A stretch of 64,000 bases of DNA, taken from NCBI RefSeq assembly GCF_024502345.1, contig NZ_JALDNN010000001.1; one strand, written 5' to 3'. The position numbers and the translations under genes were made by a program. This DNA comes from Escherichia coli (lineage in GTDB: Bacteria > Pseudomonadota > Gammaproteobacteria > Enterobacterales > Enterobacteriaceae). Every line of letters begins with the position of its first letter. Within the stretch, counting starts at the first letter, position 1. Under the pieces are notes generated by a model, which saw only the letters and a program-made list of their open reading frames with translations, was not told where the DNA came from and did not search any database. This document shows positions 56,357 through 58,119 of this stretch, piece by piece.

Positions 56357-57079
56357 ATGTCCAGGTCGCTTTTAACCAACGAAACCAGTGAGTTGGATTT
56401 ACTGGATCAACGTCCTTTCGAGCAGACCGATTTTGATATTCTGAAATCCTACGAAGCGGTGGTGGACGGGTTAGCGATGCTTATTGGCTCCCACTGTGAA
56501 ATCGTTTTGCACTCTTTGCAGGATCTAAAATGTTCAGCCATTCGCATTGCTAACGGTGAACATACAGGCCGGAAGATTGGTTCGCCAATTACTGACCTGG
56601 CGCTACGTATGCTGCACGATATGACGGGAGCGGATAGCAGCGTTTCTAAATGCTACTTTACTCGCGCCAAAAGCGGCGTATTAATGAAGTCCCTGACTAT
56701 CGCGATTCGTAACCGCGAACAGCGTGTAATTGGTCTGCTGTGCATCAATATGAATCTTGATGTTCCCTTCTCGCAGATTATGAGCACCTTTGTGCCGCCA
56801 GAAACCCCGGATGTCGGTTCAAGCGTCAACTTTGCCTCTTCTGTTGAAGATCTGGTTACCCAAACGCTGGAGTTCACCATCGAAGAAGTGAATGCCGATC
56901 GCAATGTTTCTAATAACGCCAAAAATCGTCAGATCGTGCTGAATCTCTACGAGAAAGGGATCTTCGATATTAAAGATGCGATCAACCAGGTTGCTGACCG
57001 CCTGAACATCTCCAAACACACTGTCTATCTCTACATCCGCCAGTTCAAGAGCGGTGATTTCCAGGGGCAAGATAAGTAA
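56357..57079 (+). CDS. yheO: Putative HTH-containing protein YheO
   Basis: ORF 56345..57079; start at ATG 56357 ([17 protein letters not shown]...), 240 aa. Confidence 0.88.
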
Positions 57080-57465
57080 TGCGTTTTGCCATCGTGGTGA
57101 CCGGGCCAGCATACGGTACGCAACAGGCGAGTAGTGCTTTTCAGTTTGCGCAGGCGCTGATAGCAGATGGCCATGAGTTAAGCAGCGTCTTTTTCTATCG
57201 GGAAGGGGTCTATAACGCTAACCAATTGACCTCTCCGGCAAGTGACGAATTTGACCTCGTACGGGCCTGGCAACAACTGAATGCGCAACATGGTGTGGCG
57301 CTGAATATCTGCGTAGCGGCAGCATTACGCCGTGGCGTTGTTGATGAAACGGAGGCCGGAAGACTGGGGCTGGCTTCGTCAAACCTTCAGCCGGGATTTA
57401 CCTTAAGCGGACTTGGCGCGCTGGCGGAAGCCTCGCTGACCTGTGACAGGGTGGTACAGTTCTGA
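57079..57465 (+). CDS. tusD: Sulfurtransferase TusD (tRNA 2-thiouridine synthesis)
   Basis: 128-aa [30 protein letters not shown]...; start overlaps yheO stop. Confidence 0.93.
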
Positions 57466-57824
57466 TGAAACGAATTGCGTTTGTTTTTTCTACTGTGCCT
57501 CATGGTACCGCTGCCGGGCGGGAAGGTTTAGATGCTTTACTGGCAACTTCCGCGTTAACTGACGAGCTGGCCGTCTTCTTTATTGCTGATGGCGTTTTTC
57601 AGCTACTGCCAGGACAAAAGCCCGGTGCGGTGCTGGCGCGTGATTACATTGCCACTTTTAAATTGTTGGGTCTGTACGACATTGAACAGTGCTGGGTTTG
57701 TGCGGCTTCACTGCGCGAACGTGGGTTAGATCCGCAGACACCCTTTGTTGTCGAAGCCACGCCGCTCGAAGCAGATGCCTTACGCCGCGAACTTGGCAAC
57801 TACGATGTAATTTTGAGGTTTTGA
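57465..57824 (+). CDS. tusC: Sulfurtransferase subunit TusC
   Basis: 119-aa [30 protein letters not shown]... Confidence 0.93.
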
Positions 57825-57831
57825 GGCGTTT

Positions 57832-58119
57832 ATGCTGCACACATTACATCGCTCACCCTGGCAGACGGATTTTGCTGCGCTGCTGCGTCTGCTCAGTGAA
57901 GGCGACGAACTGCTGTTATTGCAAGATGGTGTAACTGCCGCAGTTGACGGTAACCGCTACCTTGAAAGTCTGCGTAATGCCCCCATTAAGGTCTATGCCC
58001 TGAACGAAGACCTTATTGCCCGCGGTTTGACTGGTCAAATTTCGAACGACATCATTCTCATTGACTATACTGATTTCGTCAGACTTACGGTTAAGCACTC
58101 CAGCCAGATGGCCTGGTGA
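57832..58119 (+). CDS. tusB: Sulfurtransferase subunit TusB
   Basis: 95-aa [37 protein letters not shown]... Confidence 0.93.

Follow-up and report, generated by a model that had tools for sequence, protein, structure and literature searches.

Short stop/start overlaps at the operon junctions of yheO-tusDCB and other genes in a 64,000-nucleotide segment of the Escherichia coli chromosome

The window, the whole stretch of 64,000 nucleotides analysed here (NCBI RefSeq assembly GCF_024502345.1, contig NZ_JALDNN010000001.1), is an Escherichia coli chromosome segment collinear with K-12 from yhgE to bfr. The annotated coding sequences of K-12 MG1655 were placed on it by blastn, and from hslO to tufA 63 genes are full-length and gap-free, in reversed orientation relative to K-12. 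The PGAP annotation of the closest genome served as a second opinion on gene starts, and all 51 co-directional junctions in the window were collected in a junction table. The region 56000–58300 was matched by 5425 of 5426 complete E. coli genomes, the top match (99.7%) being strain 2018-05-2CC.

Within this region lie yheO and the three genes tusD, tusC and tusB (Table 1). The Pfam families of TusD, TusC and TusB (PF02635, PF02635 and PF04077) give the order D-C-B, and the three genes have 95–99.5% nucleotide identity to K-12. PDB entry 2D1P, one chain of which matches TusD, is the TusBCD complex. The original prediction was of translational coupling throughout yheO-tusDCB, with 1-nt stop/start overlaps at two of its junctions. 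At yheO/tusD (57079, TAATG) and tusD/tusC (57465, TGATG) the junctions are as predicted, each with a spacing of -1. The pattern does not extend to tusC/tusB, which has no overlap and a 7-nt spacer (57825–57831).

Table 1. Coordinates of genes, junctions and motifs in the window (gene>gene, direction of transcription; SD, Shine-Dalgarno; negative spacings are overlaps in nt).
Feature	Position	Strand	Basis or remark
yheO coding sequence, first gene of the unit; PAS_6 + HTH_22 regulator	56357–57079	+	99.9% identity to K-12; Pfam PF08348, PF13309
AGGGG, SD-like, within the yheO 3' end, 11 nt before the tusD ATG	57063–57067	+	anti-SD duplex -5.7 kcal/mol
TAATG, 1-nt overlap of yheO stop and tusD start	57077–57081	+	
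tusD coding sequence, DsrE family	57079–57465	+	K-12 mapping, Pfam; PDB 2D1P chain match, E 1.4e-79
TGATG, 1-nt overlap of tusD stop and tusC start	57463–57467	+	
tusC coding sequence, DsrE family	57465–57824	+	K-12 mapping, Pfam
tusC stop TGA inside SD TGAGG, then spacer up to the tusB ATG	57822–57831	+	
tusB coding sequence, DsrH family	57832–58119	+	K-12 mapping, Pfam
hofM>hofN TGATG, -1, predicted at 10836	10834–10838	+	K-12 mapping
hofN>hofO, -17	11359–11375	+	
hofO>hofP, -11	11789–11799	+	
hofP>hofQ, -89	12105–12193	+	
rpe>gph, overlap of 8 nt	18419–18426	+	
gph>trpS, overlap of 8 nt	19170–19177	+	
yhfX>yhfW TAATG, -1, predicted at 22974	22972–22976	+	
yhfW>php ATGA, -4	24197–24200	+	
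frlC>frlD ATGA, -4	29625–29628	-	
frlA stop TAATG (31546–31550), then curated frlB ATG (31525–31527), 7 codons downstream, same frame	31525–31550	-	
nirB>nirD ATGA, -4	36243–36246	-	
yhfG>fic, overlap of 11 nt	41334–41344	+	
yheT>yheU, overlap of 7 nt	48573–48579	-	
yheS>yheT TGATG, -1, predicted at 49595	49593–49597	-	
kefG>kefB TGATG, -1, predicted at 52190	52188–52192	+	

The assignment of yheO-tusDCB to one operon is borne out by the overlaps, in which neighbouring co-directional ORFs necessarily have DNA in common, by the conserved order of the genes, and by the lack of an internal terminator-like site or strong promoter-like match. On the + strand, no terminator-like site was found between yheO and tusB, and promoter-like matches there amounted to a single weak one (9/12) inside tusB. 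Directly before the yheO ATG is a terminator-like hairpin, GCTCC-TGAAAA-GGAGT followed by T8 (56331–56356), with a fold z of -1.8 and a 3' arm that is the SD sequence of yheO itself (AAGGAG). It could be a leader attenuator or an SD-masking structure.

Twelve stop/start overlaps had been predicted across the window, and the K-12 mapping and junction table place 11 of them exactly where they were expected. The 4-nt overlaps at yhfW/php, frlC/frlD and nirB/nirD and the 8-nt overlaps at rpe/gph and gph/trpS all hold. The 1-nt type does occur at TGATG, as described, while ATGA, which had been grouped with it, belongs to the 4-nt type; two pairs had also been named in inverted order, the correct order being yheS-yheT and frlC-frlD. 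Five longer overlaps had not been listed: hofN/hofO, hofO/hofP, hofP/hofQ, yhfG/fic and yheT/yheU. Two junctions are strain-dependent. yhfX/yhfW is TAATG (-1) in the window and TAAATG (0) in AP027877, and frlC/frlD is ATGA (-4) in the window and TGATG (-1) in AP027877. The original summary should also be read with caution at the frlB start and at tusC/tusB, both of which deviate from it.

At frlA/frlB (31548), the sequence does contain the predicted TAATG, with an ATG in the frlB reading frame; the curated start lies downstream. In both K-12 (NP_417830.4) and PGAP, frlB begins with the ATG at 31527 and is separated from frlA by a gap of 20 nt. Eight nucleotides before this curated ATG is a GGAG (-6.4 kcal/mol), and nothing SD-like precedes the overlapping ATG (+0.6 kcal/mol, a poorer value than in 96% of coding windows). 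Searching the PDB with the extended FrlB sequence returned nothing on the true N-terminus. The same double in-frame ATG layout is found in tusD and/or tusC of Yersinia (loci L064, L068, L069 and L077) and Chimaeribacter (L073).

The short spacings exceed chance. Among co-directional pairs spaced within 20 nt either way, 9 of 25 have -1 or -4, where a uniform distribution would give 2/41 (binomial p = 1.6e-6). Short overlaps can only be -1 or -4, because no combination of an ATG, GTG or TTG start with a TAA, TAG or TGA stop allows an overlap of 2, 3, 5 or 6 nt. Although genuine, the excess is an instance of a pattern already known across the genome. Of the 60 stops with a final A, 14 precede TG (3.9 expected), and only six or seven of these 14 motifs open a gene. 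The stop+TG pentamer alone is not diagnostic, because half of the motifs (7/14) open only ORFs of 2–18 codons: those after hslO, yhfS, nirD, ppiA, yhfK, tusB and rpsL. A stop codon that forms part of a TAATG or TGATG should therefore not, on its own, be read as the sign of a coupled gene. One such TGATG ends tusB (58117–58121); its ATG opens an ORF of only 8 codons, MAGSLYIS (58117–58143) – a natural case of the motif without a coupled gene. This ORF extends into the rpsL promoter, at its -35 element.

Real junctions are marked by a long ORF and an embedded SD together. In the 22 nt before 16 overlapped starts, the anti-SD duplex averages -7.5 kcal/mol, compared with -2.8 kcal/mol in 1100 coding-sequence windows (Mann-Whitney p = 2.5e-10). 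A strong individual case is kefG/kefB, with an AGGAGG 6 nt upstream (-10.3 kcal/mol). At yheO/tusD, yheS/yheT, rpe/gph and gph/trpS the SD-like motif is weak or poorly spaced, the distance being 10–11 nt for tusD and yheT.

Conservation of the tus junctions was compared in 80 Enterobacterales loci, one genome per species, in which TusD is 76–95% identical. The order yheO-tusD-tusC-tusB is kept in the 80 species. At yheO/tusD, an in-frame ATG overlaps the yheO stop in 76 of 80 species and is the aligned start in 72 of them (stops: 68 TAA and 4 TGA). At tusD/tusC, an in-frame ATG at -1 is present in 78 of 78 species and is the aligned start in 73 (66 TGA and 7 TAA); five species, of Yersinia and Chimaeribacter, have a second in-frame ATG 2–4 codons downstream. 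The overlaps persist through TAA/TGA switches while TusC identity drops to 52%. No overlap was found at the aligned tusB start in any of 71 species, and the tusC/tusB spacer is 6–9 nt in 66 of the 71; TGAGG is present in 57 of the 71. The glycine codon that forms the AGGGG before tusD is GGG or GGA in 73 of 76 species, compared with a background of 31% for Gly codons in the four genes, a comparison that is not corrected for phylogeny. Conservation of the -1 junction is partly forced, because any insertion or deletion there destroys the stop or the start codon.

More distant TusD relatives (36–70% identity) were obtained by a search of representatives and contig look-ups, with spacings taken from gene calls; one relative, P0138, was left out of the spacing comparison, its contig being too short for the neighbouring genes. 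In these relatives the spacings were +34, +13, +10, -1, +4, -4 and +40 for tusD/tusC and +19, +12, +327, 0, +12, -4 and +11 for tusC/tusB. Since the distant relatives also have gaps between tusD and tusC, TusBCD does not require the overlap. What is conserved, then, is tight spacing; the exact overlap is lineage-specific and interchangeable, as spacings differ among distant relatives and among E. coli strains.

The tus genes of the window resemble the tusBCD (yheNML) sulfur-relay operon and its dsrEFH relatives in the shared DsrE-DsrE-DsrH order and in the match to a chain of PDB 2D1P. The D-C-B order and tight spacing occur in all relatives examined. The -1/-1/+7 pattern, in contrast, is specific to Enterobacteriaceae and Erwiniaceae, other lineages having short gaps, 0 or -4, and yheO is absent from the more distant loci.

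The arrangement can also be compared with the classical cases of coupling at TGATG or ATGA: trpE-trpD, trpB-trpA and galT-galK. The motifs are the same (-1 TGATG/TAATG, -4 ATGA, and -8), and the classical pairs likewise have an SD within the upstream ORF and co-directional genes on a single transcript in the same organism. The difference is that for the window we infer, rather than know, that the arrangement works alike. Three properties expected of coupled pairs are found here. All of the listed pairs are co-directional neighbours that overlap or nearly do so; their spacings of -1, -4, -8 and +7 nt fall within about -8 to +10 nt, the range over which termination-reinitiation works in E. coli (PMC10666635; PMC12548453), with hofN/hofO and hofP/hofQ outside it; and SD-like motifs of the strength given above lie inside the upstream ORFs. 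Coupling works well between -4 and about +10 nt, is strongest from -4 to +3 nt and fades over 20–40 nt, and -4, -1 and -8 are enriched spacings in all prokaryotes (PMC12548453; PMC10666635). A literature search returned no published premature-stop test for the window's pairs. From the spacings and SD motifs, translational coupling at the window junctions is plausible.

The best explanation, held with modest confidence, is SD-assisted termination-reinitiation at closely packed operon junctions of the ordinary kind. The upstream stop codon is overlapped or adjoined by the downstream start, and an SD-like sequence lies in the last codons of the upstream gene. A ribosome terminating at that stop would already be positioned on the next start and could re-initiate there, aided by the embedded SD, probably with some independent SD-driven initiation alongside. 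Translation of neighbouring genes would then be coordinated and partly dependent on the upstream gene, and not necessarily equimolar. For yheO-tusDCB, two -1 overlaps followed by a 7-nt spacer with the tusB SD over the tusC stop all lie within the efficient coupling range.

Stoichiometric co-expression, the other consequence drawn in the original prediction, does not follow: across yheO/tusD, ribosome density drops about 2-fold at equal mRNA. In a published supplementary table (PMC5318159), yheO and tusD (listed as yheN) have mRNA values of 147.8 and 143.5 and ribosome densities of 70.5 and 37.3, and rpe and gph have densities of 223.5 and 117.3 at similar mRNA. The resulting ratios are 0.53 for tusD relative to yheO and 0.52 for gph relative to rpe; tusC, tusB, kefG and kefB are outside the data of that table. 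The relative translation of overlapping ORF pairs varies essentially like that of non-overlapping pairs (K-S p = 0.06; PMC5318159), and equal amounts would need a coupling efficiency of 100% (Huber et al., PMC6728339). An overlap should not, then, be taken to imply equimolar expression.

Going by what is generally known of the gene products, about 4–5 of the 16 window pairs spaced -8 to +10 nt encode known partners: nirBD, kefGB, tusDC, tusCB and perhaps hofMN. This share is close to the genome-wide 30%: complex subunits are encoded by only 30.4% of E. coli pairs with this spacing (PMC10666635). TusB, TusC and TusD are described as a 2:2:2 heterohexamer in the introduction of a bioRxiv preprint. 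Because the three form this complex, equal synthesis of TusD, TusC and TusB is reasonable to expect, in line with proportional synthesis of complex subunits, a concept from ribosome profiling; the one measured junction, yheO/tusD, instead shows the roughly 2-fold step. To our knowledge, YheO is not a known subunit of TusBCD. The literature searched contained no synthesis-rate data for tusC or tusB and nothing that combined proportional synthesis with coupling. The proteome paper of Zhao 2019 does not discuss overlaps, and its raw intensities for kefG and kefB are incomplete and were left out of the comparison.

Several other readings of the overlaps were weighed against SD-assisted termination-reinitiation. 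They may be neutral by-products of genome compaction or of easy mutational paths, downstream genes starting de novo from their own SD with little or no dependence on the gene upstream; this is possible, if rather unlikely. Such paths are easily named: any ATG already contains all but the last base of ATGA, and an ORF that loses its stop runs on to the next one. A review ascribes the abundance of -4 to ease of evolution (PMC12548453). The SDs of overlapped starts mostly equal or exceed those of free-standing starts (-7.5 against -5.5 kcal/mol), as independent initiation would have it, but those of tusD and yheT are weak or badly spaced and argue against efficient initiation of that kind. Native overlapping pairs of E. 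coli point both ways: four of five tested were coupled by termination-reinitiation, which counts against neutrality, while bioBF was uncoupled; the SD contributed in four of the five (PMC6728339). Short spacings are 4.5-fold enriched for complex subunits (PMC10666635), which also counts against neutrality; translation-efficiency ratios are equally variable in overlapping and other pairs (PMC5318159), which counts for it. The switching of junction state within E. coli (yhfX/yhfW, -1 or 0; frlC/frlD, -4 or -1) and the replacement of overlaps by short gaps in distant TusD relatives both fit a neutral history.

It is improbable that the downstream starts are instead masked by RNA hairpins melted only by ribosomes translating the end of the upstream gene. 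One hairpin in the window (57453–57499) does enclose the UGAUG of tusD/tusC, reaching from the final codons of tusD to about the eleventh codon of tusC (-31.9 kcal/mol, z = -2.47). Over 79 orthologous tusD/tusC junctions, however, the RNAalifold consensus is only -2.1 kcal/mol, the share of paired cells (68.0%) is that of shuffled alignments (68.1%), and covariation is not in excess; at yheO/tusD (z = +0.44) and tusC/tusB (z = +0.63) the fold is no better than that of shuffled sequence. The idea of a hairpin conserved between tusD and tusC was accordingly rejected, with no consensus structure, pairing excess or covariation in the 79 orthologues. The least probable reading of all is that some overlaps are annotation artefacts, the true start being a downstream in-frame ATG and the genes having no overlap. 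The frlB start, where the curated ATG 20 nt downstream has an SD and the overlapping ATG has none, may be a case of this kind, and the second in-frame ATG 2–4 codons downstream in tusD and tusC of Yersinia and Chimaeribacter would allow it. At the other eleven junctions, however, K-12 curation places the start at the overlapping ATG. The comparison across species, which covered the two tus junctions, aligned this ATG with residue 1 of the orthologous proteins in 72 and 73 species. Two Yersinia species have TTG where the tusD start aligns, which makes the overlapping ATG the better start there.

A stronger claim would be that TusBCD synthesis is obligatorily tied to translation of YheO, in which case YheO would be more than a neighbour: a regulator or sensor linked through translation to the tRNA 2-thiouridine sulfur relay and dedicated to it. 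Such a tie is suggested by the -1 overlap and the purine-rich Gly codon (73/76) kept across Enterobacterales, and we consider it very unlikely.

That genes in prokaryotic operons share a few bases between stop and start is textbook knowledge, and operon prediction already makes use of it. The overlaps in the window are ordinary operon junctions, of a kind already known and found in every prokaryotic genome.

A few features of the window lie outside these junctions. Compared with K-12 and strain AP027877, yhgE (593–2094) lacks about 215 bp of internal sequence: nucleotides 1–249 of the K-12 gene align with 593–841 of the window and nucleotides 465–1725 with 834–2094. Because the deletion breaks the reading frame, yhgE is probably a pseudogene in the window strain. 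kefB, intact in the window, carries a frameshift according to the annotation of the closest RefSeq genome (NZ_AP027877.1, locus L002 20720–22533). rpsG (58716–59186) ends at 59186 and encodes 156 amino acids, the K-12 form being longer (179 amino acids). At the end of the window, chiA and the gsp genes, which lie beyond tufA in K-12, are absent from 62653–64000, and bfd and bfr are about 78–83% identical to K-12. This stretch, 99.6% identical to AP027877, is a divergent segment beside near-identical flanks.
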